A program made the translations under genes and the position numbers. DNA of 64,000 nt from an uncultured Chloroflexia bacterium (GTDB lineage: Bacteria; Chloroflexota; Limnocylindria; Limnocylindrales; CSP1-4), in NCBI GenBank assembly GCA_963789905.1, contig CAWBMK010000007.1, forward strand, positions 72,747-136,746, written 5' to 3'. The notes under the pieces were generated by a model that worked only from the letters and a program-made list of their open reading frames with translations, had not been told where the DNA came from and searched no databases. This document shows, in pieces, positions 20,209 through 38,894 of the stretch (within the stretch, counting starts at the first letter, position 1; every line of letters starts with the position of its first letter).

Positions 20209-20457
20209 ATGTGCAGAAGCATCAAGCAGCTCCGCCGCCCCGAAGAGGCGGCCACGACCGGCGAGATCGAGGCCGCCGCCCGCCAGTTCGTGCGAAAGGT
20301 CAGCGGCTATCGCGTCCCATCTCGGGCGAACGAGGATGCTTTCGAGGCCGCGATCGCCGACGTCGCGGGCAGCGCTCAGCGACTGCTCGAGGCCATCGGC
20401 GTGTCCGTCGAGGAGGGGCCCGATCGCTGGGTCCCATCGGCCGCTCGGGCTCGATGA
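20209..20457 (+). CDS. DUF2277-like small protein
   Basis: MCRSIKQLRRPEEAATTGEIEAAARQFVRKVSGYRVPS... matches conserved small actinobacterial proteins. ATG at 20209. Confidence 0.5.
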   Translation: MCRSIKQLRRPEEAATTGEIEAAARQFVRKVSGYRVPSRANEDAFEAAIADVAGSAQRLLEAIGVSVEEGPDRWVPSAARAR

Positions 20458-20638
20458 CGATCGACGCCGTCGCGACCGCCTGGTGGTCGCGCGACGGGCT
20501 CGATGGCGGACCCCCGATGGCGCCCGTCGCCGAGGGCGACATCGTCGCTCTCCTGTGGGCAGGCGGGTACCTCCGGGCGATGTCGTCACGCCATTGCCTC
20601 CGCGAGCCCGCTGGGTCCATCTTCCCGAAGCGCTGACG

Positions 20639-21490
20639 ATGGTCGCCATCCCGCCGCGGCAGGCCGGCCGGGCGCAGGTCATACGCGTCCGCGGTCGGCG
20701 CGTCGAGGGCTTGGAGGATCGGCTGGCCGGCGAGGAACCGCTCGAGATCCGGGCGGCCGGCCCGGATCAGGAGAGTGTCGCCGTCGCTGTCACGATGCGG
20801 ACGCCAGGCAACGAGGCCGAGCTCGCGGTCGGATTCCTGCGGACCGAGGGCCTCATCGACGGACCTGCAGATGTCGCGGACATCAGCTTCGGCGACCCGT
20901 CTCGAGACGCTCAACCGGATGACACGGTGCTCGTTCACCTGACCCGACCCTTCGATGCGTCGGTCGTCGCCGAGCGACACTTTATCGCCACGGCATCGTG
21001 CGGGATCTGCGGCAAGGCCTCGATCGACGAGATCGCCGTCCGGTGCGCCCCGATCCCTTCCGGGCCGATGGTCGATCAGGCGATCGTCCTCGCTCTCCCG
21101 GAGCGACTGCGCGAGGCACAGGCGGTCTTTGAAGCCACTGGTGGGCTTCACGCCGCGGCGCTGTTCACCCCGCAGGGCGAGCTCATTGCGGCCCGCGAGG
21201 ATATCGGCCGCCACAACGCCCTCGACAAGCTCATCGGCTCCCAGCTCATGGCGGGAGCCCTGCCGCTCCACGATCGGGTCGTGCTGCTGAGCGGTCGGAT
21301 CGGGTTCGAGCTCGTTCAGAAGGCGGCGGTCGCAGGTGTCCCGATCTTGTGCGCGGTCGGGGCGCCGTCGGATCTCGCGGTCGAGACGGGCCGGCGCCTC
21401 GGGGTCACCCTTGTCGGCTTCCTCCGCGGCGACGCGTTCAACGTTTACACCCACCCAGATCGGATCGCTCTCGGTGGTAACCCCGCATAA
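20639..21490 (+). CDS. fdhD: Formate dehydrogenase accessory sulfurtransferase FdhD
   Basis: CGICGK...GRHNALDKLIG, which are the FdhD catalytic Cys and signature. Start at MVAIPP (ATG 20639), immediately after an upstream small-ORF stop. Confidence 0.85.
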   Translation: MVAIPPRQAGRAQVIRVRGRRVEGLEDRLAGEEPLEIRAAGPDQESVAVAVTMRTPGNEAELAVGFLRTEGLIDGPADVADISFGDPSRDAQPDDTVLVHLTRPFDASVVAERHFIATASCGICGKASIDEIAVRCAPIPSGPMVDQAIVLALPERLREAQAVFEATGGLHAAALFTPQGELIAAREDIGRHNALDKLIGSQLMAGALPLHDRVVLLSGRIGFELVQKAAVAGVPILCAVGAPSDLAVETGRRLGVTLVGFLRGDAFNVYTHPDRIALGGNPA

Positions 21491-21715: not shown

Positions 21716-23035
21716 TCAGGCGGGGTGGAGCGCTCGCCACATGTCGATTGACCACTGCCAATCGCCGACATCCTGGAACGCGATCCGGATGGCGGCGCCG
21801 CGTCCACGGACGGCCACGTAGCCCTCGAGGACGCCGACCTCGACGCCCGAGCTGCCGTCGGTGCTGATCTTCGCCCGCCCGAGGATCGGTCCGTCCTGGC
21901 GGGTGATGATGTCGCGCCCCAGATGGGAGGCGACCTGGTCGAGGAAGTCCGAGGCCGGCATGGGCCCGCGATCCGTCCCGGTCACGACACCCGCCAGGGT
22001 GATCGTGCGGCCCGCGTCGCTGCCGGTCCATTCCTCGGCCGTCCGGACGTCGCTGAACGAACCGGGCAGAGGTAGCGCCCAGCCCTCGTGGACGATCGTC
22101 ACCTGCCCTCGCCGATAGCCGATCGGCTCTCTCTCGCCGCCCTCTGCGGCCGCCTTCGCGGCGCGTGCCTCGACGTCGGGCGCGACGGCGTCGTGGATGC
22201 CCCGGAGCTTGAGGAGCTCGCCCCACTCACGCCACGGCCATGGCAGCTTCGTGTCGAGAGCGACGCCGTGTTTCAGCGTCTGGAGGACCTCGTCCTGGAC
22301 CCGGCGCTCGGCCGGTGTCACCGGCCCCCGCCAGCGGACATCACACCACATGAGGCAGAGCGCCCTGTTGAGCATGTAGCGAGCGTCGGTCGCATCGGCC
22401 CACCAGGGCACGATGTCGATGGCCGTCGGGACCTCGCTGAGGGCGCGCTCGAGCCATCGATCGTCGCGCGGTCCGAGTGGCGTCGCGATGGCACCTGGGA
22501 CCTCGATCCGAAGGTCGGCCGGCAGGCCGATGAGCATCCCGCCGGCGCCGAGTCGTCGGGCGTCCCGGGCGCCGACGAGAGTTGAGCCGAGCCAGGCAAG
22601 GTGTGCCCGCTCGACCGTCGGCCGATCGACACTGACCTTGCCATCGACGATGGGATGGACGTCGCTCGTCGTCCACTCGAGATCGAGCTCGAGCGCCAAT
22701 CGCTCGGCGACGTGGGCGAGGAAGCGCTGGTAGCCCGGGCCGACGCCCGCCGTTTCACCCTCGAGGGCGATGATGCCCTCGTCGTCGGCGATCGCGACGA
22801 GCGGAGGAGCGACCGGGTGCAGCCCGACGGCGAGCCTCGACTCACCAGAGGCGAGCCGCGACGCTTCGGACGACCGAATGGTGTCCCCGTACTCGGCATC
22901 GAGCCATGCCTTCGCCTCCGCGAGCAGCTTCTCGCCGTCTCGAGGCTTGCGGGCGATGCCGCGCTTGGATCTCTGGATGCCGATGCCACGCTTGGACGCC
23001 TGGCCGCTGACGCGGAATGTGGTAGACGCGCTCAT
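21716..23035 (-). CDS. Conserved hypothetical protein (439 aa), co-directional and downstream of the formate dehydrogenase genes
   Basis: Long ORF with coding-like composition and no recognisable catalytic motif. The N-terminus has a duplicated SKRGIxxxR element. Confidence 0.5.
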   Translation of the reverse strand: MSASTTFRVSGQASKRGIGIQRSKRGIARKPRDGEKLLAEAKAWLDAEYGDTIRSSEASRLASGESRLAVGLHPVAPPLVAIADDEGIIALEGETAGVGPGYQRFLAHVAERLALELDLEWTTSDVHPIVDGKVSVDRPTVERAHLAWLGSTLVGARDARRLGAGGMLIGLPADLRIEVPGAIATPLGPRDDRWLERALSEVPTAIDIVPWWADATDARYMLNRALCLMWCDVRWRGPVTPAERRVQDEVLQTLKHGVALDTKLPWPWREWGELLKLRGIHDAVAPDVEARAAKAAAEGGEREPIGYRRGQVTIVHEGWALPLPGSFSDVRTAEEWTGSDAGRTITLAGVVTGTDRGPMPASDFLDQVASHLGRDIITRQDGPILGRAKISTDGSSGVEVGVLEGYVAVRGRGAAIRIAFQDVGDWQWSIDMWRALHPA

Positions 23036-23139: not shown

Positions 23140-24255
23140 TCAGGGCCCGCGGCCGCCTTCGACGAACTGCCATCCGAAGCGCCCTTTGATGCACAGGTGA
23201 CCGTCCGTCACCGAGTGGTCCATCGGCGAGGTCACCTTGACGATCCGGCCGTCCTGGGCGTGGAGCTCGAGGTTGCAGCCGACCCCGCAATAGGGACAGA
23301 TCGTCGTGGTCTCGGTCTGCGCGCTCTCGTCCCACGTGCCCGCTGCCCGCATCTCGTGCTCACGACTGAACATGAGCGCGCCCGTCGGACAGACGCCGAT
23401 GCAATTGCCGCAGTAGACGCAGGCCGAGTCGGGCAGTGGGACGGCCTGCTCGGTCGAGATTCGGGCGTCGAAGCCGCGCCCGGCGACGGCGATCGCGAAC
23501 GTGTTCTGGGCGTCGACCCCGCAGGCCTCGACGCACTTGTAGCAGAGGATGCACTTCGAGTAGTCGCGGACGTAAAGCTCGTTGTCGACCTTGACAGGCT
23601 GGGCGACCGTCGCCGCGACATCGCCGGCTGTGCCGTGGTGCTGGCCGGTGACGCGGCCGTCGCGCTCGCCGGCAGCCGTGGGCTCAGAAGCCTCGCCGTA
23701 CCGCGAGGGGTCGGCTCCATATCGCTCCATCCAGGCCGCGATGGAGCCGTCCGGCTCGCGTGGTCCGGCGAGCGAGAGGTCGACGGATGAGCCGAGGAAT
23801 TCGAGAACGACCTTGCGAGAGAGCGCGACGCGATCCGACTCGGTCTGGATCTCCATCCCCGGCTCGACCTTGCGGGAACAGGCGGGCACCAGAACGCGCG
23901 AGCCGGTCACCTCGACGACGCAGACGCGACAGACGTTGACCGGGGTGAGGTTCTCGAGGTAGCAGAGCGTCGGCAGATCGCCGCCCGTCACACGGACCGC
24001 CTCGAGGATCGTCGAGCCCTCGGGTACGGAGACGGCCCGGCCGTCGATCGTGACCTCGACCATCGCGGCGTGGTCCGGATGAGGGGCGAATGGCGCAAGC
24101 GGTGTACGGGGCTGGCCGACGAACCAGACCGGCATCTCGTCCCACCCATCCCTGGGTGTCGGTACCCAGTTGCCCGGCACCGGGCCGGCATGCTCCGGCT
24201 GGTCCTCGGGTCCGAGGTGCTCCAGGTGCTTGCGGGGCTCGCTGTGCTCGCTCAT
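23140..24255 (-). CDS. Formate dehydrogenase alpha subunit, N-terminal Fe-S module only (NuoG-like 2Fe-2S + 4Fe-4S domains + MopB N-terminal 4Fe-4S motif)
   Basis: 2Fe-2S ferredoxin fold (TLCYLENLTPVNVCRVC), two 4Fe-4S ferredoxin motifs (CILCYKCVEAC, CVYCGNCIGVCP) and the MopB FS0 motif CPYCGVGCN...GHLCIKGRFGW. It then ends. The ATG at 24255 overlaps the stop of the upstream gene as ATGA. Confidence 0.8.
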   Translation of the reverse strand: MSEHSEPRKHLEHLGPEDQPEHAGPVPGNWVPTPRDGWDEMPVWFVGQPRTPLAPFAPHPDHAAMVEVTIDGRAVSVPEGSTILEAVRVTGGDLPTLCYLENLTPVNVCRVCVVEVTGSRVLVPACSRKVEPGMEIQTESDRVALSRKVVLEFLGSSVDLSLAGPREPDGSIAAWMERYGADPSRYGEASEPTAAGERDGRVTGQHHGTAGDVAATVAQPVKVDNELYVRDYSKCILCYKCVEACGVDAQNTFAIAVAGRGFDARISTEQAVPLPDSACVYCGNCIGVCPTGALMFSREHEMRAAGTWDESAQTETTTICPYCGVGCNLELHAQDGRIVKVTSPMDHSVTDGHLCIKGRFGWQFVEGGRGP

Positions 24256-26123
24256 GCCACGACCATGCCTTCGCGGACAGCCGATTCGATGGCCGCCGAT
24301 GCCGTCTGGCCCAGGCCGCAGATCGAGGCGTCGCGCATCGTCTGGCCGATCTCCGCGAGAAGGCGCATATCCGAAGCCCGGTCGCCGATGGGCAGGTCGG
24401 CCAGCAGCCGGGCCAGCAGCTCCTCCTGGCGGACCGTGCCGACCCGGCAGGGCACGCATTGGCCACACGATTCGTCGCGGAAGAACGCTGCGATCCGACG
24501 GAGTGCGTCGAGGATGTCGGCGCGCTCGTCATACACCAGGATCACGCCGGAGCCGAGGGACGCCCCGACGGCTCGCGTGCCCTCGAACGTCAGCGGCAGG
24601 TCGAGGTTGTCGGGGCCGACGAACGTTCCGGCCGCTCCGCCCAGGAGGACCGCCTGCAGCGCCCGGCCATTCGCGACGCCGCCGGCCATGGCGATGAGGT
24701 CGCCGAGGGTCGCCCCGAACGGGACCTCGAAGAGGCCCGGTCGAGCGACGTTGCCGGACAGGCAGAAGAGCTTGACCCCGCTCGATCCGGCCGTCCCGCG
24801 GCGCGCGTATGCCGCCCCACCCTCGCGCATGATCAGGGGCACGTTGACGAGCGTCTCGACGTTGTTGATGACCGTCGGTTTGCCGAAGAGGCCGTGAGTC
24901 ACCGGGAACGGCGGCTTGTTGCGGGGCTCACCGCGCCTGCCCTCGATCGAGTTGAAGAGCGCGGTTTCCTCGCCGCAGATGTAGGCGCCGGCGCCGCGCC
25001 GGATCTCGATGTCGAAGGCGAACCCTGCGCCCAGGACGTCCGCTCCGAGCAGTCCAGCGGTACGGCAGGCGTCGATTGCGGCCGCCATCGTAGCGGTCGC
25101 GGCCGGGTACTCCGCACGGATGTAGATGTAGCCGTGCTCCGACCCAGTGGCGAACGCGCCGATCGTCATTCCCTCGATGACGGCGAACGGGTCGCCCTCC
25201 ATGAGCAGGCGATCCTTGAACGTCCCGGGCTCCGACTCGTCGGCGTTGCAGACGAGGTAGTGCGGGGTGTCGGGCTGACCTGCCACCGCCTCCCACTTGC
25301 GACCTGTCGGAAAGGCCGCCCCGCCTCGCCCGACGAGGTGCGAGGTCGTGACCTCTGCGATCGTCGCCGCCGTGCCGAGCTCAATGGCCCGTTGGAGCCC
25401 GGCGTAGCCGCCATCTTGCCGGTAGGCGTCGAGGTCGGTCGGCCCGATGCGTCCGATGCGGCCGATGAGGCGTAGATCGGCCGCGGCCGCCGAGTCGACC
25501 TGCGGCACCGATGCACGCAGCTCGTCTCGCGTCGGGAGGGCGTCGCCTGGAACGAGCTCGAGGCGGCGGATGATGCCCGCCGCGTCGATCGGCCCGGCCA
25601 CCAGCTCAACGGCTTCCTCGCCGGCGATCGTGAACAGGGCGACCGGGGCACGCTCGCACATCCCGAGGCAGGGGCTGCGATGCCACGTCACGGCTCCTTC
25701 GTGGACCGGCTGGCCCTCTGGGCCGAGCGAACGCTCCAGCGCGGCCGCAGTCTCCTCGGCGCCGGCCAACCGACAGGCCAGATCGTCGCACACATGGGCC
25801 ACGGTCGGCGGCTGGGGAGTCGTCGAGAGGAGGGCGTAGAAGGTGGCCACGCCGTAGGCCTCGGCTGGCGGGACCGACAGCCGCTTGCAGATGTAGTTGA
25901 GGGCGGGCTGGCTGATATGGCCGAAGCGAGCCTGGATCGCGCGAAGGGCTGGCAGCAGCAGGTCGCGGCGCGCCCGTGCCGCGTGACCGCCGTAGGCGAC
26001 GTGCCCTTCCGTGCGCGCATCGCGCTGACCGCCCACCCAGCCACTCTCGGGCGGTCCGACGACGGCGTCGACGGCTGCCCGCTCGGCGGCCGAGGCGAGC
26101 GGCCCGATGACGTGGAGATCCAT
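24252..26123 (-). CDS. NAD(+)-dependent formate dehydrogenase beta/gamma fusion (NuoE-like 2Fe-2S domain fused to NuoF-like NADH/FMN/4Fe-4S subunit)
   Basis: N-terminal NuoE-like motifs (ALNYICKRLSVPPAEAYGVATFYALL...CDDLAC...CLGMCERAP). Then NuoF motifs (GRGGAAFPTGRKWE, FMN site, C-terminal CGQCVPCR 4Fe-4S). Confidence 0.85.
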   Translation of the reverse strand: MDLHVIGPLASAAERAAVDAVVGPPESGWVGGQRDARTEGHVAYGGHAARARRDLLLPALRAIQARFGHISQPALNYICKRLSVPPAEAYGVATFYALLSTTPQPPTVAHVCDDLACRLAGAEETAAALERSLGPEGQPVHEGAVTWHRSPCLGMCERAPVALFTIAGEEAVELVAGPIDAAGIIRRLELVPGDALPTRDELRASVPQVDSAAAADLRLIGRIGRIGPTDLDAYRQDGGYAGLQRAIELGTAATIAEVTTSHLVGRGGAAFPTGRKWEAVAGQPDTPHYLVCNADESEPGTFKDRLLMEGDPFAVIEGMTIGAFATGSEHGYIYIRAEYPAATATMAAAIDACRTAGLLGADVLGAGFAFDIEIRRGAGAYICGEETALFNSIEGRRGEPRNKPPFPVTHGLFGKPTVINNVETLVNVPLIMREGGAAYARRGTAGSSGVKLFCLSGNVARPGLFEVPFGATLGDLIAMAGGVANGRALQAVLLGGAAGTFVGPDNLDLPLTFEGTRAVGASLGSGVILVYDERADILDALRRIAAFFRDESCGQCVPCRVGTVRQEELLARLLADLPIGDRASDMRLLAEIGQTMRDASICGLGQTASAAIESAVREGMVVA

Positions 26124-27285: not shown

Positions 27286-29199
27286 TCAGGCGACAGGTGT
27301 CGAGAGCTTCTCGATGCGGATGGCGGTCGCCTTGAACTCGGCCGTTCCCGACTTCGGGTCGGTGGCGTCGATCGTCAGGAGGTTCGTCGCCACGTCGTCC
27401 TGGAAGTGCAGGGTCATGAATGTGAGACCTGGCCGCAGGGATTCATCGATCCTGATGGGGACATTCAGCTCGCCCCGGCGTGAGCGGACATGAACGACCT
27501 CCCCGTCGCTGAGGTCATACGTCAGCGCGTCCTCGGGGCTGATGTCGAGCGATTCGCCTCGCCGCAGCGGCGATGTGTAGCCGGCCGTCTGGACGCCGGT
27601 GTTGAAGGAGTCGAGTCGCCGGCCGGTGGTGAGGCGGATCGGGAACTCGTCGGTCAGCCGATCGACCGGCGGATCGTGTTCGACGGGCATGAACGGTGCC
27701 GGAGCGCCGACGCGCGGTTGTGCCCACAGCCGGGAGTGGATGTACAGCTCGCCCGGGTGGGTCTCGTCCCAGCACGGCCAATGGATGCCGCCGAGCTCGT
27801 CGAGGCGTCGGTAGCTCATCCCGGCGTGGACCGGGGAGAGCGATCGGACCTCGTCCCAGACCCTTTCTGCGACCGGCTCGCCCCAGTCGTGGCCCATCCG
27901 GCGGGCGACCTCGAACACGATCCAGAGGTCATCGCGTGCCTCGCCCGGCGGGTCGATCGCCTTGCGCACCCGCTGGACCCGTCGCTCGCTGCTGGTCACC
28001 GTCCCCTCGGTCTCGGCGAACGAGGCTGCCGACGGCAGGACGACATCGGCCAGCGCGGCCGTCTTGGTCAGGAACAGGTCCTGGACGACGAGGGCCTCGA
28101 GACCGCCAAGGAGCTCGATTGCCGTGGCCTGGTCCGCCTCCGACTGGACCGGGTTCTCGCCGACGCAGTAGATCGCCCGGACCTCGCCGGTCTGCATGCC
28201 GTGGAACATCGCCGATAACGAGCGACCCCGGCGCGGCGGGATCGTCACGCCCCAGGCCGCCTCGAATTTCGCTCGCGCGGCGTCGTTCTCGACGTGCTGG
28301 AAGCCGGGCAGCCGGTCTGGCAGGGCGCCCATGTCGCCGCCCCCCTGGACGTTGTTCTGGCCGCGCAGCGGCTGCAGACCGCTTCCGTAGCGGCCGACGT
28401 GACCGGTCAGCAGCGACAACGAGATCAGGGCCAGGACGTTGTCGACCGCGTTGTGATGCTCGGTGATGCCCAGGGTCCAGCAGAGCTGGGCGGACTTGGC
28501 CGTCGCATACGCGTGCGCCAACTGGCGGATCGCTTCAGCGGGCACGCCCGTCTCGCGCTCCGCGTACTCAAGGGTGTACTTCTCGACGCCCTGGCGGTAG
28601 AGGTCGAAGCCGATCGTCGCGTTGTCGATGAACGCCCGGTTCTCGAGGCCGGCGGCGATGATCTCGCGGCCCACCGCGTTGGCCAGGGCGATGTCCGAAC
28701 CCACGTCCAGGCCGAGCCACAGGTCGGCCCACTCCGCGCTTGCCGTCCGGCGCGGATCGACCGCATACAGGCGAGCCCCGTTGTGGATCCCCTTGAGGAC
28801 ATGGTGGAAGAAGATGGGGTGAGCTTCGCGAGCGTTGCTACCCCACAAGATGATGAGGTCGGTCTCCTCGACCTCCCGGTATGAGCTGGTCCCGCCGCCA
28901 GCCCCGAACACGGTCGCCAGACCGGCGACAGAGGGTGCGTGTCAGGTGCGGTTGCAGCTGTCGATGTTGTTGCTGCCGATGACCGCGCGGCCGAACTTCT
29001 GCGTCGCGAAGTTCAGCTCGTTGGTGGCCTTCGAGCAGCTGAAGAGCCCGAACGCTCCGGGTCCGTGCCGGTCCACGACGCTCGAGAAGAGCTCCGCGGT
29101 CCGGTCCAGGGCCTCGGCCCAGCTCGCCCGCCGGAGATCGCCGGTCTTGCCGCCGACTCTGACGAGCGGGTGGGTGAGTCGGGCATAGGCCTGTGCCAT
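27286..29199 (-). CDS. fdhA: Formate dehydrogenase alpha subunit, catalytic molybdopterin (MopB) portion; selenocysteine-containing (in-frame TGA at 28942-28944)
   Basis: Two ORF-track entries (28942..29670 and 27286..28911) are in the same frame, separated only by TGA. Reading through gives ...GSNNIDSCNRT-U-HAPSVAGLATVFGAGGG..., matching E. coli FdhF ...GTNNVDCCARV-U-HGPSVAGL. Start at MAQAYARLTHPLV (ATG 29197-29199, GAGGA RBS). Confidence 0.85.
28913..28929 (-). other. SECIS-like hairpin downstream of the Sec UGA
   Basis: mRNA GUCGCC-GGUCU-GGCGAC is a perfect 6-bp stem with a GGUC-containing apical loop, starting 12 nt after the UGA, as in E. coli fdhF. Confidence 0.5.
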
Positions 29200-29322
29200 G
29201 CTCGATCCTCGACTCGATGGCGATGTGTACGCCACGCTCCCGAGTGTATCTCCGGGTTGTGGCATACGATATTGGCCCGCACCCGCGCGCTTCGAGCACC
29301 AACGGAACCAGGAAGGTCGGAC

Positions 29323-29574
29323 ATGCCGCTCTACCTCGATACACATCACCACGTCGAGGGCCTGACAGCCGAGGCGGTCGCCGGTGCCCATGCCGCCGAT
29401 CTCGGAGTCCAGGGGAAATACGACGTGCGCTACCTGCGGTACTGGTTCGATGAGGCGACCGGCAAGGTCTTCTGCCTCGTCGAGGCGCCCTCCGCGGAAG
29501 CTGCCATCCAGGTCCATCGCGAGGCTCACGGCCTCCTGGCGGACGAGATCACCGAGGTCAGAGAGGGGATCTGA
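29323..29574 (+). CDS. DUF4242 (SCO4226-like) small protein
   Basis: 83 aa MPLYLDTHHHVEGLTAEAVAGAHAADL...RYLRYWFDEATGKVFCLVEAPSAEAA. ATG 29323 with a GGAAGG RBS. Divergent from fdhA. Confidence 0.6.
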   Translation: MPLYLDTHHHVEGLTAEAVAGAHAADLGVQGKYDVRYLRYWFDEATGKVFCLVEAPSAEAAIQVHREAHGLLADEITEVREGI

Positions 29575-32332
29575 CCTCCAGGTCGACCGCGGGCGCGAGA
29601 AGGGCGATCGCCTCATCGAGCCCGGTCGACAGTCCGCCCTCCCAGGCAACGCCGAATGCCGCCGCGCCAAGGCTCTCGGTGAGGTCGGCGACTAGCCGAT
29701 CGTGTTCGGCCCGCGCGCCGACCTGGCGGGTTGCGCCGATCTCGAGGCGAAGCGCCTCGGCCGCGCCGAGGAGTCGTGCAGCCAGTCGCGGGTCAGTGGC
29801 CGCCACCGTTATCGCCAGTCGCTCGAGCGCCCTGACCGAGCCGGGTTTGTCGCCCAGCGTGCGCCGCATCTCGAGGCCCTCGCGATGCAGGGCGATCGCC
29901 TGTGTCGTCTCGCCGCGACTTGCCTCCGCATCGGCCAGGAGCATGAGCATCCGAGCGACACCGCGGCCGTCACCGATCGACCTATAGAGCGTCAGCGCTC
30001 GGGTGAGGATCTCTTCAGCCGCCGCAGGATCGCCGCTCGCGTGGACTGTCGCCCCCTGTTGGCCAAGGGCGTGCGCCTCGCCCCAGATGTCGCCCTCAGC
30101 ACGGAAGATCTCGGCCGCCTCCTCGAACGACCGAAACGCGCCCTCGTGGTCGCCCCGTCCCTCGGCAACACTGGCGAGATTCATGAGCTGGAAGGCCACG
30201 CCACGCCAATCGGACACCGACCGGGCGAGAGCGAGACCTTCCTCGTACAGCGCGACGGCGCGTTCCGAGTCGCCTTGCTGGACGCACAGGCTCGCAAGAT
30301 TGCTGAGGGCGGACGCGATGGCCAGGGGATTGCCGATCGCGCGCTGGGTGTCGACGCAGCGCTCCAGATAACGCATCGCCCCCTGTGGGTCGCCCCGCAG
30401 CCCCGCGATGACGGCCGCTCCCGTCAGTGCCGTGGCCCGCACCTCGCTGGCATCGCCCGCGTCGGCTTCCACTGCCCTGGCAAGCCAGGTGCTCGCTTCG
30501 GCGAGGGCGCCCCGGATCTCCCAATAGCGCCACAGGCCGGCCGCCATTCGAACCAGCGCATCACCCGACGATGGGTCAGACGCGCTCCAGTCGAGCGCCG
30601 CCCCGAGATTGGCACGCTCGCGATCGAACAAAGCGATCCACTCGGTCGGATCTGAGCCCCGGAAGAAGTCCGGCTTCGCTCGTTCGACGAGCGCGACGTA
30701 CCAGTCGCGGTGCCGACTCTGCGCCTCGCCGGCCTCCTCGCTCTCGACGAGCTTCTCGCGGGCGTATTCCCGAACAGTCTCGAGGAGTCGGTATCGGCCG
30801 CCGCCGCTCTCGACGTCAAGGATGACGAGCGACTTGTCGACAAGCCTGGACAGCAGATCCAGCACCTCGTGCGACTCGATGTCGGCGCCTCGACAGACGG
30901 CCTCGGCAGCTTCGAGCGTGAACGAACCCGCGAAAACGGCAAGCCGGCGCAGGATCGCCTTCTCCTGATCCGTCAGCAGGTCGTGGCTCCAATCCATGGC
31001 GGCACGGAGCGTTTGCTGGCGCTGAAGCGCGATCCTGCTGCCTCCGGTCAGGAGGCGGAACCGGTCATCCAGCCGGGCTGCGATCTGGTCGACGGGCATC
31101 GAGCGCACCCGAGCCGCCGCAAGCTCGAGCGCCAACGGGATGCCATCGAGGCTGCGGCAGATGCGCACGACGGCCGACGCACTCCGTTGGTCGATGGTGA
31201 ACGTGGGGTCGACGACCCGGGCACGATCGGCGAACAGGGCGACGGCCTCGTAGGTGAGCAGATTTCCGCTTGGCTGCCGGTCTGCGGCGTCAGGCAGCGA
31301 TAGCGACGGGACCCGATAGATCGTCTCGCCTGGGATGCCGAACGCCTCGCGGCTGGTGGCGATGATGCGGAGGTTCGGGCAGCCGCGCAGGAGCGCGTCG
31401 GCCAGCCGGGCCGCGGCGTCGACGAGGTGCTCGCAGTCGTCGAGGACGAGGAGGGTCGTCCGCGGCCGAAGATGGCTGAGGATCGAATTGATCGGCGCCG
31501 CGCCCGGTGGAGTGGCGATGCCAACGCTCGTCGCTACAGCTTGGGGGACGAGGCTCGGGTCGGTGATCGTGCCGAGCTCGACGACCCACACGCCATCCTG
31601 ATAGCGGTCGAGAAGATCGGCCGCCACATGTAGCGCCAGCCTCGTCTTCCCGATACCACCGGCTCCGGTCAGGGTCAGCATGGGCGACCCGGCAAGGAGC
31701 TCCCGGACCTGCACGGTCTCGGCGTCCCGGCCGACGAACCTCGTCAGGAGGCGTGGCAGATTGTTGGGAAGGGTGTCGAGTGACCGAAGGACGGGGAAGT
31801 CTTCGCGAAGTCCGTCTGCGGCGACCTGGTAGAGATGCTCGGGCCTGGCCAGGTCCTTGAGCCTGTGCTCGCCGAGGTCGATGAGTCGGACGCCATCCGG
31901 CACCCCGTGCCTGATGAGCTCGGCCGTCGTCTGGGAGATCAGGATCTGGCCTCCGTGACCCGCGGCCGCGATGCGCGCCGCTCGGTGGACGTCGATGCCG
32001 ACGTAGCCCGCAGCCGCCGTCTGCGGCTCGCCGGTATGGATACCCATCCGAACCAGGATCCTGACGTCGTCGGGCCAGGTGTGGGTTGCAACCGAACGTT
32101 GGGCCTCGAGCGTCGCCTCGAGAGCCGAGCGGGCACTCGCGAACGAATAGAAGAACCCGTCGCCGGCGACGTCGATCTCGCTCCCCTCATGGGCCCGGAA
32201 TGCCTGGCGCAGCAGGCGATTGTGGTCGTCGACGACTGCAGGCCAGCGATCCTTGAGGGCCGCCACGAGGGTCGTCGAGCCCTCGATGTCCGTGAAGAGA
32301 AACGTCACCGTCCCTTGGGAGTGGTCGGTCAT
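29558..32332 (-). CDS. Adenylate/guanylate cyclase domain - P-loop NTPase (NB-ARC/AAA) - TPR multi-domain regulator
   Basis: N-terminal class III cyclase motifs (VTFLFTDIEGST...GDGFFYSF). Then a Walker A GAGGIGKTRLA and C-terminal TPR repeats. ATG at 32330-32332 overlaps the selD stop. Confidence 0.8.
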   Translation of the reverse strand: MTDHSQGTVTFLFTDIEGSTTLVAALKDRWPAVVDDHNRLLRQAFRAHEGSEIDVAGDGFFYSFASARSALEATLEAQRSVATHTWPDDVRILVRMGIHTGEPQTAAAGYVGIDVHRAARIAAAGHGGQILISQTTAELIRHGVPDGVRLIDLGEHRLKDLARPEHLYQVAADGLREDFPVLRSLDTLPNNLPRLLTRFVGRDAETVQVRELLAGSPMLTLTGAGGIGKTRLALHVAADLLDRYQDGVWVVELGTITDPSLVPQAVATSVGIATPPGAAPINSILSHLRPRTTLLVLDDCEHLVDAAARLADALLRGCPNLRIIATSREAFGIPGETIYRVPSLSLPDAADRQPSGNLLTYEAVALFADRARVVDPTFTIDQRSASAVVRICRSLDGIPLALELAAARVRSMPVDQIAARLDDRFRLLTGGSRIALQRQQTLRAAMDWSHDLLTDQEKAILRRLAVFAGSFTLEAAEAVCRGADIESHEVLDLLSRLVDKSLVILDVESGGGRYRLLETVREYAREKLVESEEAGEAQSRHRDWYVALVERAKPDFFRGSDPTEWIALFDRERANLGAALDWSASDPSSGDALVRMAAGLWRYWEIRGALAEASTWLARAVEADAGDASEVRATALTGAAVIAGLRGDPQGAMRYLERCVDTQRAIGNPLAIASALSNLASLCVQQGDSERAVALYEEGLALARSVSDWRGVAFQLMNLASVAEGRGDHEGAFRSFEEAAEIFRAEGDIWGEAHALGQQGATVHASGDPAAAEEILTRALTLYRSIGDGRGVARMLMLLADAEASRGETTQAIALHREGLEMRRTLGDKPGSVRALERLAITVAATDPRLAARLLGAAEALRLEIGATRQVGARAEHDRLVADLTESLGAAAFGVAWEGGLSTGLDEAIALLAPAVDLEVRSPL

Positions 32333-33423
32333 CTCGTTGCCGCGATCAGGGCGATCCCTCGGCCGGTCTCGACGTGGCCGATCCACCAATGAGAGACGCC
32401 GCGGAAGGTGAGGTCCTGTCCAACGGCGTCGGCCGCGTCCTCCGGGACGGCCGCAAGGAGGCCGCCCGAGGTCTGCGGGTCGTGGGCGAGGACGACGCGT
32501 TCGGGGGGGACGTCCCGGTCGATCGTCACCGCATCGGCCACGGACCGGCGGTTATGGGCGGCACCCCCGGTCTCGACGCCGGCCCGCGCGTTGTCGAGCG
32601 CGCCGGCGAGGGCTGGCAGGCCGTCCGCCTCGATGACGAAGCGCGTCCGATTTCCGGCGCCGGCGTCGGTCCGGATCATCTCGGCGGCGTGGCCGAGCAG
32701 CCCGAAGCCGGTGACGTCGGTCGCGGCCCGGACGCCATGGGCCACGAGCACCTCCGAGGCCGCCCGGTTGAGGCGACGCATGGACTCGATGGCCCCGTCG
32801 AGGTCCTCGTCGGAGGTTCGACCCTGGCGCCGTCCGCTCACGAGGACGCCCGTGCCCAGGGGTTTCGTGAGCAGCAGGCGGTCTCCCGGTCGCGCGCCAC
32901 CCTTGCGCAGCAGACGGTCCGGATGGCCGGCGCCGACGACCGCCAAACCGTATTTTGGCTCCGGATCGCGGATCGTATGGCCACCGGCCAGGGTGCCCCC
33001 AGCCTCGCGGACGACGGAGGCCGCGCCATCGAAGATCGCGGCCATGGTCTCCCGGGGCAGATCCTCGGGCAGGGCGGCGATCGACAACGCGAACAGGACG
33101 CGGCCGCCCATGGCAAATATGTCGCTAACGGCGTTAGCCGCGGCGATCTCACCAAACGTCCGAGGGTCGTCGACGAGCGGTGGGAAGAAGTCGAGCGTCC
33201 CGATGATCGCCAGGTCGTCCGAGATGCGGTAGGCGGCGCCGTCATCGGGCGGATCCAGCCCGGCGATCATGTTTCGATCGCGATTCTCCCTATTCGTCGC
33301 ACCGAGCCCGGCGAGGGCCTCCGCGAGCAGATCGGCACCGAGCTTGGCCGCACATCCGCCGCAGTCCGTCAGGTCGGTGAGGCGGATGTCGATCGGTGTT
33401 GCGGGAGGCTCGAGCCGTGTCAT
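32329..33423 (-). CDS. selD: Selenide, water dikinase (selenophosphate synthetase), Cys-type
   Basis: IRLTDLTDCGGCAAKLGADLL...AISDIFAMGG...MTDVTGFGLLGH...DPQTSGGLL aligns along its full length with E. coli SelD. There is a Cys (not Sec) at the active-site position. Confidence 0.9.
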   Translation of the reverse strand: MTRLEPPATPIDIRLTDLTDCGGCAAKLGADLLAEALAGLGATNRENRDRNMIAGLDPPDDGAAYRISDDLAIIGTLDFFPPLVDDPRTFGEIAAANAVSDIFAMGGRVLFALSIAALPEDLPRETMAAIFDGAASVVREAGGTLAGGHTIRDPEPKYGLAVVGAGHPDRLLRKGGARPGDRLLLTKPLGTGVLVSGRRQGRTSDEDLDGAIESMRRLNRAASEVLVAHGVRAATDVTGFGLLGHAAEMIRTDAGAGNRTRFVIEADGLPALAGALDNARAGVETGGAAHNRRSVADAVTIDRDVPPERVVLAHDPQTSGGLLAAVPEDAADAVGQDLTFRGVSHWWIGHVETGRGIALIAATR

Positions 33424-34284: not shown

Positions 34285-34317
34285 GGGCCGCAAAGCCCCG
34301 GCGATACCATCGCCGGC

Positions 34318-34414
34318 GGGAGCGGAGGGGTCCCGGTGGGTCCCCCGGTCTTCAAAACCGGTGACGCCGCGCTCGGCGTGGCGTGGTGGGTTCGACTCCC
34401 ATGCGCTCCCGCCA
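34318..34414 (+). tRNA. selC: tRNA-Sec (anticodon UCA)
   Basis: 97 nt with an acceptor stem GGGAGCG/CGCUCCC. The D arm is a 6-bp stem GGGUCC/GGGUCC (two G-U pairs) with a 4-nt loop CGGU, the tRNA-Sec hallmark. Anticodon arm CCGGU-CUUCAAA-ACCGG with UCA at 34352-34354. Long variable arm ACGCCG-CGCU-CGGCGU. T arm GUGGG-UUCGACU-CCCAU. Discriminator G and encoded CCA. Confidence 0.75.
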
Positions 34415-35091: not shown

Positions 35092-36486
35092 GTGCGGTGT
35101 AACGTCCGCGAGATGGTCAGCGAGTCATCCCCGCGGCCCCCGGGCGTCGAGCGGTTGCTGAAGGCCGTGCGTCCGCTCGCCGGTCAGCGGGACGCCGACA
35201 TCCTCGTTCAGGCCACCCGGGCCGTCGTCGCGGACGAGCGCGATCGGCTTGCGCGGGGCGACGCACCCCGCCCGGTTGACGAACTCGCTGAGGCCGTTGT
35301 TGGTCGCCTTGACGCGGCGATGTCCGACGGATGGACGCCGATAATCAACGCTACCGGTGTGATCCTTCACACCAACCTGGGCCGGGCACCGTGGCCGGAC
35401 GCCGCCGTCGATGCCGCCCGGGCAGCGTCGGAGAATCTGTTCCTTGAGATGGACCGATCGTCGGGCCGGCGCGGGCCCCGATTCCGGGCTGCCGAGGAGC
35501 ACCTGATCGCCCTGACCGGGGCCGAGGATGCCCTCGTCACGAACAACAACGCGGCGGCAGTCGTGCTCGCCTGTCACCTTGCCGGTCGGCGTGGGATCGC
35601 CGTGGCCCGAGGCGAGCTCATCGAGATCGGCGGAGGAGTCCGGATCCCCGAGGTCGTTCGCCGCTCCGGTGCACGTCTCGTCGAGGTCGGCACGACCAAC
35701 AAGACCCGTGTGTCCGATTTCGAGGAGGTCCTCGCGGACGGTCGAGCTGCCGTCATCCTCCGGGTCCACGCCTCGAATTTCCGGATGAGTGGCTTCGTCG
35801 AAAGCCCCGACACGGCGGCGCTCGCCGCCATCGCGGCAGACCATGCCGCGATCGTCATCGACGACCTTGGCTCGGGTGCCCTGCTCGACACCGCGGCCTT
35901 CGGCCTGCCCCACGAACCGACGCCCATGGAACGGCTCCTGGCCGGGGCCGATCTCGTCACGTTCTCGGGCGACAAGCTCATCGGCGGGCCGCAGGCGGGC
36001 TTCATCGTCGGTCGGCGGGACCTCATCGCCCGGATCCGCAAGGACCCGCTGTCTCGGGCGATGCGACCGGACAAGGTGACGCTCGCCGCAGTCGCGGCCA
36101 CCCTGGCGATCTATGTCGCCGGAACGGCGACCCGGGAGATTCCAGTCTGGCGGATGATCGCCCAGTCGAGCGACGCGATCCGCGTCCGCGCGGAGTCGCT
36201 CTGTCGACGCCTCACGAAGCTCGGCCTTCCTGCCCTCCCGGTCCTTGTCGAGTCGACGATCGGCGGAGGCGCACTTCCTGAAGCGGTGCTTCCGTCGTGG
36301 GCGGTGGCTCTCTCGGACCCAAGCCCGGACCATCTGCTCGCGCGTCTCCGTGAGGGGATACCGGCCATCGTGGCGCGCATCGAGGCCGGCGCCGTCGTGC
36401 TCGACATGCGCACCGTCGACGAGCGGTGGGACGCCGAAGGTTCGCTGGCGGGTGCGCTGGTCCGCGCGCTGGGACGCGCTGGGTGA
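35092..36486 (+). CDS. selA: L-seryl-tRNA(Sec) selenium transferase
   Basis: VTNNNAAAVVLA...GELIEIGGGVRIPEV...FSGDKLIGGPQAGFIVGRRDLIARI aligns with E. coli SelA, including the PLP-Lys region (FSGDKL). Confidence 0.9.
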   Translation: MRCNVREMVSESSPRPPGVERLLKAVRPLAGQRDADILVQATRAVVADERDRLARGDAPRPVDELAEAVVGRLDAAMSDGWTPIINATGVILHTNLGRAPWPDAAVDAARAASENLFLEMDRSSGRRGPRFRAAEEHLIALTGAEDALVTNNNAAAVVLACHLAGRRGIAVARGELIEIGGGVRIPEVVRRSGARLVEVGTTNKTRVSDFEEVLADGRAAVILRVHASNFRMSGFVESPDTAALAAIAADHAAIVIDDLGSGALLDTAAFGLPHEPTPMERLLAGADLVTFSGDKLIGGPQAGFIVGRRDLIARIRKDPLSRAMRPDKVTLAAVAATLAIYVAGTATREIPVWRMIAQSSDAIRVRAESLCRRLTKLGLPALPVLVESTIGGGALPEAVLPSWAVALSDPSPDHLLARLREGIPAIVARIEAGAVVLDMRTVDERWDAEGSLAGALVRALGRAG

Positions 36487-38315
36487 CGGTCGTCATCGGG
36501 ACGGCCGGGCACATCGATCACGGCAAGACGACCCTGCTCCGGGCGCTCACCGGGATCGACGCCGATCGGCTCCCGGAGGAGAGGGCGCGGGGCATGACGA
36601 TCGATGTCGGTTATGCCCACATGACCCTCCCAGATGGCGACGTCCTCGACTTCGTCGACGTCCCAGGGCATGACCGGCTCATCGGAAACATGCTCGTCGG
36701 CGCCGCTGAGGTCGACGCCGCCCTGCTCGTGGTCGCGGCCGATGATGGGCCGCGGGCGCAGACGCATGAGCATCTCCGCCTCATCGATGCACTCGGCATC
36801 GACCACGGCATCGTCGTCATCACGAAGTCGGACCTCACCGGTCCCGGCGATCCGAGGACGATGTCGACCGAGCAGGCCGTCCGTGAGATCGTGGCCGGGA
36901 CAGGCCTGGCTCATTCACCCGTCATCGCCGTCTCTGCGTCGACTGGCAGTGGTCTCGACGAGTTGCGGACGGCACTTATCGATCTGCGCGATGCAGTCCG
37001 GCCCGAAGTCACCGCTCGAGAGGGCCCGGCGAGACTGGCCATCGATCGCATCTTCACGATCCGCGGCCACGGTGCGGTGGTGACCGGATCGCTACGCGGC
37101 GGCGCGTTCGAGACAGGCCAGGTCGTGCGGATCGAGCCCGGGCACAGGCGGGCACGAATCCGCGAGATCCAGAGCCGAAATGAGCCGACGAACCGGGCGA
37201 CCGGGGGTCGAACGGCGTTGAACCTTACGGGGGTCGATGCCGACCACTTGCATCGAGGCATGGTGATCGTCCCAGCGGACGACCTTCGCCTGGCCGTCAG
37301 CGATCGCCTGCTCGTGGTCCTCCGCTCACCTGCCCGGCGATCAACGGGCGCCTGGCGACTCCATCTCGGGACGGCCGAGGTCGGCGCCGAGCTCGGTCGT
37401 GGCCAGCGGGAGCACGCCGAGCTTGCGACCGGCGCCACGACGACGCTCCTGCGCCTCGATCGACCGGTCGCGATGGTGCTGGGCGATCGATTCGCCCTCC
37501 GGTCCAGCAGCGACACGACGGCCATCGGCGGCCGTGTCATCGATCCCGACCCGCCGCGTGGGCCGTCCCGCCGACGCGTCGACACGGATCGGCTCGCAGC
37601 GCTCGCGAACGCCGGGACCTGGGACGAACGCGACGCCGCCCGACTCGACCTGCATGGCTCGCTCGTCGCGGTCGCTGGGTCGGTCAGGCTGGCCCCGGAC
37701 GTCGAAGCCGGGATCGATGCGGCCGCCATCGCGGCAGTCCGCGACCATCACGTCAACGAGCCCGACTCGGCCGGACTCTCCGTCGCCGATATCCGGCCCC
37801 TGCTCGCCAGAGCGCTGCGTCGCCGGGTGACGATCGATGCCCGTGCGGCAGGCGCGGCGATCGAGGCGCGCCTTGGCGGTCTCGTCGCGACAGGGCGGCT
37901 GGCCCGGGACGGCGACCGCCTTCGCGACCCATCGCGCCCAGCCGGCACGCCGGCCGTCGTCCTCGCGGCCATGGATCGGCTGGAGACCCGGTTGGCGGTC
38001 CATTCCCCGCCGCCGCTCGCCGAGGCCGCGCGTGAGGCTGGCTGTCCGTCGGACGGTGTCAGGGCCCTTGAGAATGCCGGCCGCATCGTCCGACTCGAGC
38101 CGGATCTCGCCTATGCGTCATCGACATTCCGGGAGCTCGAAGCCCTGGCAGTGTCTATGGCCCGGGCGGGTCCGCTCACGCCGGCGGCGTACCGCGACGC
38201 CACGGACACCTCGCGACGCTACGTCATGGCCCTCCTCGAGGAGTTCGATCGACGGGGCGTGCTCCGGAGGACGGATGCCGGTCGCGTGCCGGGTCCGCGG
38301 GCCGCGGCGACGTGA
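36483..38315 (+). CDS. selB: Selenocysteine-specific translation elongation factor
   Basis: GTG start (GTGA overlap with the selA stop). VIGTAGHIDHGKTTLLRALTGIDADRLPEERARGMTIDVGYA...DVPGHDRL is a near-identical motif order to E. coli SelB. The C-terminal winged-helix region is present. Confidence 0.9.
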   Translation: MTVVIGTAGHIDHGKTTLLRALTGIDADRLPEERARGMTIDVGYAHMTLPDGDVLDFVDVPGHDRLIGNMLVGAAEVDAALLVVAADDGPRAQTHEHLRLIDALGIDHGIVVITKSDLTGPGDPRTMSTEQAVREIVAGTGLAHSPVIAVSASTGSGLDELRTALIDLRDAVRPEVTAREGPARLAIDRIFTIRGHGAVVTGSLRGGAFETGQVVRIEPGHRRARIREIQSRNEPTNRATGGRTALNLTGVDADHLHRGMVIVPADDLRLAVSDRLLVVLRSPARRSTGAWRLHLGTAEVGAELGRGQREHAELATGATTTLLRLDRPVAMVLGDRFALRSSSDTTAIGGRVIDPDPPRGPSRRRVDTDRLAALANAGTWDERDAARLDLHGSLVAVAGSVRLAPDVEAGIDAAAIAAVRDHHVNEPDSAGLSVADIRPLLARALRRRVTIDARAAGAAIEARLGGLVATGRLARDGDRLRDPSRPAGTPAVVLAAMDRLETRLAVHSPPPLAEAAREAGCPSDGVRALENAGRIVRLEPDLAYASSTFRELEALAVSMARAGPLTPAAYRDATDTSRRYVMALLEEFDRRGVLRRTDAGRVPGPRAAAT

Positions 38316-38884
38316 CGGTGTCCGCCATCGTCCTGGCGGGTGGTCGATCGTCGCGGTTCGGTCGCGACAAGCTTGCCGAGCCGCTCGATGGCCGACCGCT
38401 GCTTGCCCATGCGGTCGGGGTCGTCCAGGCGATCGCCGACGACGTCGTCGTCGTTCTCGCGCCGGACGCACCCGAGCCGAGCCTGGCGGGCGTTCGCTTC
38501 GCTCGCGATCCTGAGCCATTCGGCGGCCCGCTCGTCGGCCTCCTCGCCGGCCTCGAGGTGGTGACCGAGGAGACCGTCCTCGTCGTCGCCGGGGATATGC
38601 CTTCTCTCGACCCGGGCGTGTTGCGGCTGGTCATCGAGTGCCTCGACGGTGTCCAGGCGAGCGCGCTTCTCGACGGCGAGACCATCCGCCCACTCCCGGC
38701 GGCATTCCTGCGCTCTGCCGCACGAGCGGCGGGGTTGCGACTCCGCGATACCGGCGAGCGCAGCCTGCGCGCCCTCTTTGGCGAGATTGTGGTCCGGACG
38801 ATCCCCGACACGGCATGGCGTGCCCTCGACCCGACAGCCGTCACGCTGCGTGACATCGATCGTCCGTCCGATCTTCCGGCCTAG
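38312..38884 (+). CDS. mobA: Molybdenum cofactor guanylyltransferase
   Basis: GTG start overlapping the selB stop. AIVLAGGRSSRFGRDKL and VVAGDMP motifs. Confidence 0.8.
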   Translation: MTVSAIVLAGGRSSRFGRDKLAEPLDGRPLLAHAVGVVQAIADDVVVVLAPDAPEPSLAGVRFARDPEPFGGPLVGLLAGLEVVTEETVLVVAGDMPSLDPGVLRLVIECLDGVQASALLDGETIRPLPAAFLRSAARAAGLRLRDTGERSLRALFGEIVVRTIPDTAWRALDPTAVTLRDIDRPSDLPA

Positions 38885-38894
38885 GATAGGGACG

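Follow-up and report, generated by a model that had tools for sequence, protein, structure and literature searches.

The 64,000-nucleotide stretch analysed here (hereafter the window; contig CAWBMK010000007.1 of assembly GCA_963789905.1, an uncultured Chloroflexia bacterium, G+C content 69%) carries on its minus strand a gene for a predicted catalytic part of a formate dehydrogenase (FDH), interrupted by an in-frame UGA that almost certainly encodes selenocysteine (Sec), and, 3 kb downstream, a second gene ending in the iron-sulfur domain that the first one lacks. The open reading frames (ORFs) listed as 28942..29670 and 27286..28911 were found, from the ORF list and the sequence, to share one frame with the TGA at 28944-28942 as the sole interruption, as a preliminary description of this DNA had stated. 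Translation through this codon reads ...GSNNIDSCNRT*HAPSVAGLATVFGAGGG, which places the UGA at codon 86 in the context SCNRT-U-HAPSVAGL. The start codon was assigned to the ATG at 29199, which is preceded at a distance of 6 nt by a GAGGA Shine-Dalgarno sequence and lies 7 residues before the point at which the Pfam Molybdopterin match opens, giving a product of ~637 amino acids (aa) and ~70 kDa. The remainder of ORF 28942..29670, upstream of this ATG, was considered mostly noncoding because a plus-strand gene occupies ~29320-29574; this SCO4226-like gene (nickel-responsive, PF14026) is divergent from the catalytic gene and lies ~120 nt from its start. The products of the catalytic gene and of the second gene are referred to below as the C-half and the N-half.

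Searches of the C-half against Pfam returned PF00384 Molybdopterin (aa 7-433) and PF01568 Molydop_binding (aa 522-625), and its best NCBIfam match was TIGR01591 Fdh-alpha (645.3 bits, model positions 50-672 of 672). Its best solved relatives were T. kivui FdhF and E. coli FdhH (~475 bits). The alignment covers residues 61-689 of FdhH (1AA6, 474 bits) and residues 308-933 of R. capsulatus FdsA (6TG9, 404 bits), so that in sequence the C-half stands nearer to enzymes of the FdhF type, at 475 bits, than to FdsA. The UGA falls on FdhH Sec140, and both His141 and Arg333, the arginine of RGQNNVQG, are conserved; the C-half accordingly holds Sec86, His87, the RGQ arginine and the domains that bind molybdenum or tungsten bis-pyranopterin guanine dinucleotide (bisPGD). 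In the active-site motif classes of FDH given by the ForCE paper, U-H plus RGQ constitutes class I (PMC8808070). Together these comparisons support the prediction that the C-half is an FDH catalytic subunit, in agreement with the FdhF/FdhA active-site Sec context and the FDH family membership of the joined translation put forward in the preliminary description. The further proposal of a ~70 kDa FdhF/FdsA product stood in part only: the product is the catalytic part of an FDH, but it is incomplete, starting at the equivalent of FdhH residue 61 and lacking the [4Fe-4S] domain.

No Molybdop_Fe4S4 domain (PF04879) was detected in the C-half by Pfam, and upstream of ATG 29199 there was neither room for such a domain nor a trace of it in any of the three frames, so that a frameshifted or degenerate copy at this position was rejected. 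The domain, which holds the cluster FS0, was instead found at the end of the N-half, the ATG of which overlaps the stop codon of nuoEF (ATGA). Residues 318-366 of the N-half match TIGR01591 positions 1-49 (52.1 bits) and the N-half aligns to FdsA (6TG9) residues 22-302; the break between the halves thus falls between model positions 49 and 50, at the equivalent of FdsA residues 303-307. The N-half ends in ...CIKGRFGWQFVEGGRGP* and the C-half starts with MAQAYARLTHPLVR, whereas the counterpart stretches of FdhH, LCLKGYYGWDFI and RLKTPMIR, stand in one chain, 9 residues apart. Members of the N-half family contain 16-17 cysteines, 16 of which fit one 2Fe-2S cluster, two ferredoxin-type 4Fe-4S clusters and FS0, and the four cysteines and the CxK lysine of FS0 are retained at the N-half end in all sampled members. 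A degenerate Molybdopterin domain following the N-half stop was sought and none was found, the next ORF (23035->21716) being without a family; an intein or trans-splicing of the halves was likewise rejected, as the junction tails are just 5-25 aa long with no intein-sized sequence. The order along the minus strand is C-half, a 370-aa membrane protein, NuoEF and N-half, followed by FdhD on the opposite strand.

Table. Features of the window assigned to the putative split formate dehydrogenase, its predicted selenocysteine signal and the selenocysteine machinery
Feature	Position	Strand	Content and evidence
C-half, predicted catalytic FDH gene	27286..29199	-	85 codons, UGA, 551 codons, stop; Mo/W-bisPGD binding domains, no Fe4S4 domain
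UGA, predicted Sec codon	28942..28944	-	Alignment with FdhH Sec140; TGA in 84/85 loci; TGC/TGT in two actinobacterial relatives
Predicted apical SECIS hairpin	28913..28929	-	GUCGCC 28929-28924, loop GGUCU 28923-28919, GGCGAC 28918-28913
Predicted membrane protein, 370 aa	26155..27267	-	No Pfam/NCBIfam family; between C-half and nuoEF
NuoE-NuoF fusion, 623 aa (FdsG + FdsB equivalent)	24252..26123	-	PF01257, PF01512, PF10531, PF10589; TIGR01959 NuoF 445 bits; 2Fe-2S, flavin mononucleotide (FMN)/NAD(H), 4Fe-4S
N-half, iron-sulfur part, 371 aa	23140..24255	-	PF13510, PF00037/PF12838, PF04879 at extreme C-terminus; 2Fe-2S, two ferredoxin-type 4Fe-4S, FS0
FdhD/FdsC-type sulfurtransferase for FDH maturation	20336..21490 (ORF limits)	+	PF02634 224 bits, match from aa 133; beside N-half gene in most loci
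selD (selenophosphate synthetase)	32329..33423	-	TIGR00476 342 bits, cutoff 125
selC, tRNA-Sec, anticodon UCA	34316..34414	+	ARAGORN; Rfam RF01852 74.4 bits, gathering 47
selA (selenocysteine synthase)	35092..36486	+	TIGR00474 449 bits; Pfam SelA
selB (Sec-specific elongation factor, SECIS-binding winged-helix domain)	36426..38315 (ORF limits)	+	TIGR00475 312 bits; PF00009, PF25461, PF09107

For comparison, 84 homologous loci were retrieved, 4 via their encoding contigs and 80 from species-representative genomes, making 85 with the window. They represent at least eight phyla (Chloroflexota, Acidobacteriota, Planctomycetota, Actinomycetota, Rokubacteria/Methylomirabilota, Eremiobacterota, Dormibacterota and Spirochaetia) and share 69-91% protein identity. 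The preliminary description had made conservation around the UGA, and the nature of any sense codon replacing it, the test of its proposal; the flanks DSCNRT-U-HAPSV were invariant across the 85 loci, and sense codons at the site were limited to Cys in Actinobacteria and a single contig with CGA. In the actinobacterial relatives (Nonomuraea, Streptomyces), in which TGC or TGT stands at the Sec site, the loop base and the 3' arm of the hairpin described below are changed. The one locus with CGA (Arg) in place of TGA is a 2.2-kb farmland metagenome contig (L004, positions 413-415) in which the hairpin is intact (GUCGUC-GGUCU-GACGAC), and the codon might stem from a sequencing error, mark a dead allele or have some other cause. 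The ~120 best matches of a protein search were almost all ORFs of 541-555 aa starting just past the UGA, and with the N-terminal part as query dozens of ORFs of 82-87 aa ending at it were found. Measured against ten relatives, the ratio of nonsynonymous to synonymous substitution rates (dN/dS) of the C-half was 0.23-0.45 before the UGA and 0.10-0.31 after it. The N-half gave values of 0.13-0.33.

The split recurs throughout this set. In all 85 loci the C-half starts with M, V or L and a few residues before RLTxPLVR, with no Fe4S4 domain in frame upstream, and wherever a locus reaches into the downstream genes the C-half is followed on the same strand by NuoEF and then the N-half. Where its end was readable the N-half stops 5-25 aa past GRFGxxF, the exceptions being a few tails that resemble long-read frameshifts, and the Cys-type actinobacterial genomes have the identical order of C-half, NuoEF and N-half. 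When representatives clustered at 50% identity were searched with the N-half, the matches above ~50% identity were mostly short split forms or fragments, and clearly unsplit full-length relatives (770-980 aa) appeared at 36-45% identity only; a homologue search with an actinobacterial Cys-type fragment returned partial proteins only. An apparent fusion of Molybdopterin and Fe4S4 domains (P0410) was set aside, as it reads like an assembly chimera or an internal deletion.

The hairpin GUCGCC-GGUCU-GGCGAC was present where the preliminary description had placed it, 12 nt past the UGA (+15..+31 counted from the U of UGA), and the likeness claimed for it to the selenocysteine insertion sequence (SECIS) of fdhF was confirmed: in E. 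coli K-12 fdhF the UGA is codon 140 and is followed by CAC, and the GGUCUG at +21..+26 is identical to and in register with that of the window. Selection on the RNA was analysed using 80 distinct 66-nt sequences from the homologous loci. Stem pairing was standard in 480/480 cells (6 pairs x 80 sequences), full stem pairing was reached by 0/500 shuffles, and pairing fell to 14-81% when the 3' partners were slid. One stem pair occurs as C-G (53), U-G (15) or U-A (12) and never as C-A; at the protein level its covariation appears as a change of Ala...Ala to Val...Thr (VAGLA / VVGLT) with the stem kept. The third-codon positions of the stem (+17, +20, +26 and +29) are invariant in 80/80 sequences, and both the U at the third-codon position of the loop (+23) and the loop GGUCU itself are found in 75/80; outside the hairpin no third-codon position is invariant and most show three or four bases, although the twofold third positions of His (+5) and Phe (+38) are nearly fixed. 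A longer lower stem, CAC...GUG, was unsupported, its 3' G being a freely varying wobble base. On this comparative evidence the hairpin is under selection at the RNA level.

The Sec machinery reported near the gene in the preliminary description was found in full: selD, selC, selA and selB all scored above curated cutoffs, 3-9 kb from the C-half gene and all within 9.2 kb, and in the Chloroflexota relatives selD, selA and selB likewise lie just upstream. As listed, the selA and selB ORFs of the window overlap by 61 nt (36426-36486) and the SelB model match begins at aa 22; the true selB start probably lies inside or just past the selA overlap. The claim that the UGA is recoded and is not a pseudogene stop is thus borne out by the conservation of TGA, by purifying selection and by the frozen wobble positions of the stem, and the UGA is almost certainly a real Sec codon as judged from these sequence comparisons.

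The reading that we favour, with a probability of roughly 85%, is that the gene 29199->27286 encodes the Sec-containing catalytic module of a cytoplasmic NAD(H)-linked FDH of the FdsABG/NuoEFG-like kind, the alpha subunit of which would be built from two polypeptides. SelB with Sec-tRNA(Sec) would bind the hairpin at 28929-28913 and the UGA at 28944-28942 would be read as Sec, as its conservation suggests, and Sec86 would then serve as a ligand of Mo or W. The C-half with its bisPGD would assemble non-covalently with the FS0 domain of the N-half, which carries the CxK lysine that normally adjoins the pterin. Electrons would pass from formate to Mo/W, across the subunit interface to FS0, through the ferredoxin-type clusters and the 2Fe-2S cluster to the 4Fe-4S cluster of NuoF, and by way of FMN to NAD(P)+, with the reverse path serving CO2 reduction. 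A tandem duplication of a nuoEF-fdsA unit, with the outer parts later lost, might have left the order C-half, NuoEF, N-half, which is speculation. In the Chloroflexota lineage insertions have placed unrelated genes between the C-half and nuoEF. Equally speculative is a possible benefit of an early UGA in a separate gene, in that failed Sec insertion would yield a harmless 85-aa peptide and not a 390-aa iron-sulfur fragment able to occupy NuoEF.

Several observations weigh against this reading or narrow it. The complementarity of the halves and the linkage of their genes are the whole basis on which we infer that they associate physically, and the sequence alone does not discriminate Mo from W or NAD from NADP. 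Another gene stands between the C-half gene of the window and nuoEF; among close relatives the interval spans 1-8 kb and sometimes takes in opposite-strand genes, so that co-transcription of the C-half with nuoEF is not assured. The His-ligated 4Fe-4S motif HxxxCxxCxxxxxC, which in FdsA, NuoG and [FeFe]-hydrogenases stands between the 2Fe-2S and ferredoxin domains, was absent in 18/18 aligned N-halves, in which its place is taken by non-ligand residues, ...LGSSVDLS... and then a variable linker with a conserved ERD...GHH (18/18); electrons may therefore take another path than in FdsABG. At the RNA level, the hairpin was no more stable than dinucleotide shuffles (minimum free energy z -0.09 to +0.45 in three folded segments), and folding energy was dropped as evidence for a SECIS, z values near 0 being uninformative at 69% GC. 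A search of the whole window with Rfam at gathering thresholds found no SECIS family, only the tRNA-Sec, and in a permissive search RF01989 SECIS_3 scored 18.6 bits against a gathering threshold of 63 (E = 0.16 in 401 nt), although this sub-threshold match is full length and correctly placed (28947-28889). Change on both sides was seen in just one stem pair, and the sequences compared are related, so that the shuffle control overstates significance. It is the comparison with relatives, folding energy giving no answer, by which the recoding of the UGA was settled.

An alternative that accepts the UGA as Sec and the C-half as a working FDH gives it another electron partner or none, NuoEF and the N-half then forming an independent NADH-linked iron-sulfur module. 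It draws on the variable genes, some on the opposite strand, that separate the two units in the clade of the window, and on the fact that some Mo-bisPGD enzymes, namely dimethyl sulfoxide and trimethylamine N-oxide reductases, work without FS0. In this clade of Chloroflexota metagenome-assembled genomes (MAGs), several of them labelled Limnocylindria/Limnocylindrales, 0.5-8 kb of variable genes usually lie between the C-half and NuoEF, whereas in most loci outside it the three genes are packed together, overlapping or with gaps of 0-50 nt, and the pair was never found apart in loci long enough to judge. The gap is itself inconstant: homologues of the 370-aa membrane protein (34-61% identity) occur in or beside it only in L001, L012, L013, L021 and L076, and elsewhere it holds other genes or none, from which this protein is, on its distribution, a lineage-specific insertion and not part of the enzyme. 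Moreover, the only known role of the Fe4S4 domain is to feed the bisPGD cofactor, yet it is kept with its four cysteines and CxK lysine, and TIGR01591 is divided between the halves precisely at positions 49/50. A separate partner for the C-half is for these reasons considered unlikely.

That the C-half is a selenoprotein of the Mo-bisPGD superfamily other than an FDH, for instance an assimilatory nitrate reductase-like or other oxidoreductase, is more improbable still. Its score lies just under the TIGR01591 cutoff (645.3 against 666.25 bits), with model positions 1-49 uncovered, and the NasC, NasA and NapA models also match. However, the shortfall is explained by the 49 absent positions, which are present in the N-half at 52 bits, and the nitrate-reductase scores are far under their cutoffs (393 against 1100). 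FdhD, an FDH-specific sulfurtransferase, is linked to the genes, and genes that fit an oxalyl-CoA decarboxylase and a formyl-CoA transferase adjoin the catalytic gene in one actinobacterial relative. The FDH-specific U/C-His and RGQ motifs are also in place (classes per PMC8808070).

The locus could also be taken for a pseudogene, with the TGA as a genuine stop and the C-half as what is left, in decay, of an fdsA that a rearrangement has broken. Such a view would account for the absence of a domain found in every characterised FdhF/FdsA, for two pieces that follow each other the 'wrong' way round, separated by an unrelated gene, and for the unexceptional hairpin energy. It is very hard to reconcile with the recurrence of the identical TGA, start and split in 84 other loci of many phyla, with purifying selection on either side of the UGA and on the N-half, with synonymous sites frozen inside the hairpin only, with a complete Sec machinery adjacent to the gene, and with FS0 cysteines and active-site residues that are all intact, and we regard it as very improbable. 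Assembly artefact as the source of the reversed order, to which only its oddity and the frameshifts of the many related MAGs assembled from long reads would point, is of negligible probability, the identical order being found in independent assemblies from varied projects, technologies and phyla, with the start or stop codon of each half at a conserved place.

The putative split FDH was compared with characterised enzymes. With E. coli FdhH (fdhF) it shares the aligned catalytic domains including the Sec140/His141/Arg333 positions, a UGA followed by CAC, the GGUCUG loop in register and, as predicted for the window, decoding that depends on selABCD. It differs in that FdhH has its own FS0 (Cys8, 11, 15 and 42) whereas the C-half has none, in that the fdhF SECIS has a bulged U where the stem of the window is a perfect 6-bp G+C-rich helix, and in its predicted partner, a NuoEFG-like module, the partner of FdhH being hydrogenase 3. 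With FdsABG (R. capsulatus, 6TG9/6TGA, and Cupriavidus necator) it shares the NuoE- and NuoF-like parts, the NuoG-like iron-sulfur region, FS0, the bisPGD domains and FdhD/FdsC. FdsA, however, is one Cys-containing chain of 958 aa, whereas the window has two chains, in reverse gene order and with Sec; the window system has its FdsG and FdsB equivalents fused and lacks the His-ligated 4Fe-4S motif that FdsA contains, and no FdsD was found for it.

Separately encoded parts are known from other systems. In the clostridial FdhF2-HylABC enzyme (Gottschalkia acidurici) an FdhF-like subunit with Sec or Cys is accompanied by separately encoded NuoG-, NuoF- and NuoE-like subunits. In enzymes of this clostridial type and of the hydrogen-dependent CO2 reductase type the split lies upstream of FS0 and, unlike the C-half, the catalytic subunit keeps its own Fe4S4 domain; T. 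kivui FdhF (7QV7) aligns from residue 62 and so has ~60 N-terminal residues absent from the C-half. Formylmethanofuran dehydrogenase FwdB/FwdD is a precedent for an FDH-like Mo/W-bisPGD subunit on two polypeptides. There the C-terminal Molydop_binding domain is the separate piece, whereas in the window the N-terminal FS0 domain is detached and forms part of a NuoG-like protein.

No kind of bacterial selenoprotein is commoner than a Sec-containing FDH with an fdhF-like SECIS, and in itself the predicted protein is ordinary. The predicted enzyme of the window is set apart from canonical FdhF/FdsA, as a variant that would work like an FdsABG-type enzyme, because FS0 is not in cis and the TIGR01591 cutoff is missed, and from FdsA in particular because there is no single chain with a His-ligated cluster. 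No description of the split was found in the full-text literature, subscription journals lying outside its coverage, and a split alpha subunit with reversed gene order is apparently an undescribed variant. In practically all of the database entries seen, gene callers have cut the C-half at the UGA, giving fragments of 85 and 541 aa, and relatives are labelled by NCBI as 'molybdopterin-dependent oxidoreductase, partial'; a widespread soil enzyme of formate or CO2 metabolism is consequently mis-annotated in a systematic manner. Tentatively, and at slightly less than even odds, the loci may represent a large, apparently undescribed class of NAD(H)-linked FDHs with Sec and Cys forms, common among the Chloroflexota, Acidobacteriota, Planctomycetota and Actinomycetota of soils, in which FS0 has moved from the catalytic subunit to the C-terminus of the NuoG-like one and the gene order is permuted at the level of the operon. 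If so, electrons leaving the pterin would pass from one subunit to another in their first transfer. The split is of moderate interest for the study and engineering of Mo/W FDHs in CO2 reduction, as a natural experiment in which the FS0 domain is supplied in trans, as a minimal, separately expressed catalytic module and as a case of operon-level permutation; nothing in it overturns how Sec decoding and FDH chemistry are presently understood.

Other genes of the window and of its relatives were also inspected. The true start of FdhD is probably further in than the ORF limit. Directly after the N-half gene, the 439-aa ORF 21716-23035 (-) has no Pfam/NCBIfam family; L001 has an ORF of 80% identity in the corresponding place, the other loci have none, and both the 439-aa ORF and the 370-aa membrane protein were rejected as FDH subunits, as they occur in few close relatives only. 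A 943-aa protein with adenylate/guanylate cyclase, STAND ATPase and TPR regions is encoded between the FDH gene and selD (29558-32389, -). Just after selB, a class-V aminotransferase (38649-39977, +) is distantly cysteine-desulfurase-like (63 bits to TIGR01976, far under the cutoff) and could, on this weak resemblance, be a selenium donor of the selenocysteine-lyase type. A 1043-aa 'SelA-SelB fusion' called in one Chloroflexota MAG (L002, 3133-6264) is probably a long-read frameshift artefact and not a true fusion, as tblastn places selA in two frames. In Nonomuraea (L085, 189-5466) the Cys-type split FDH gene lies beside genes with TPP_enzyme and CoA_transf_3 domains, and MoeA; the former two fit an oxalyl-CoA decarboxylase and a formyl-CoA transferase, which suggests formate from oxalate breakdown as the substrate in this organism.

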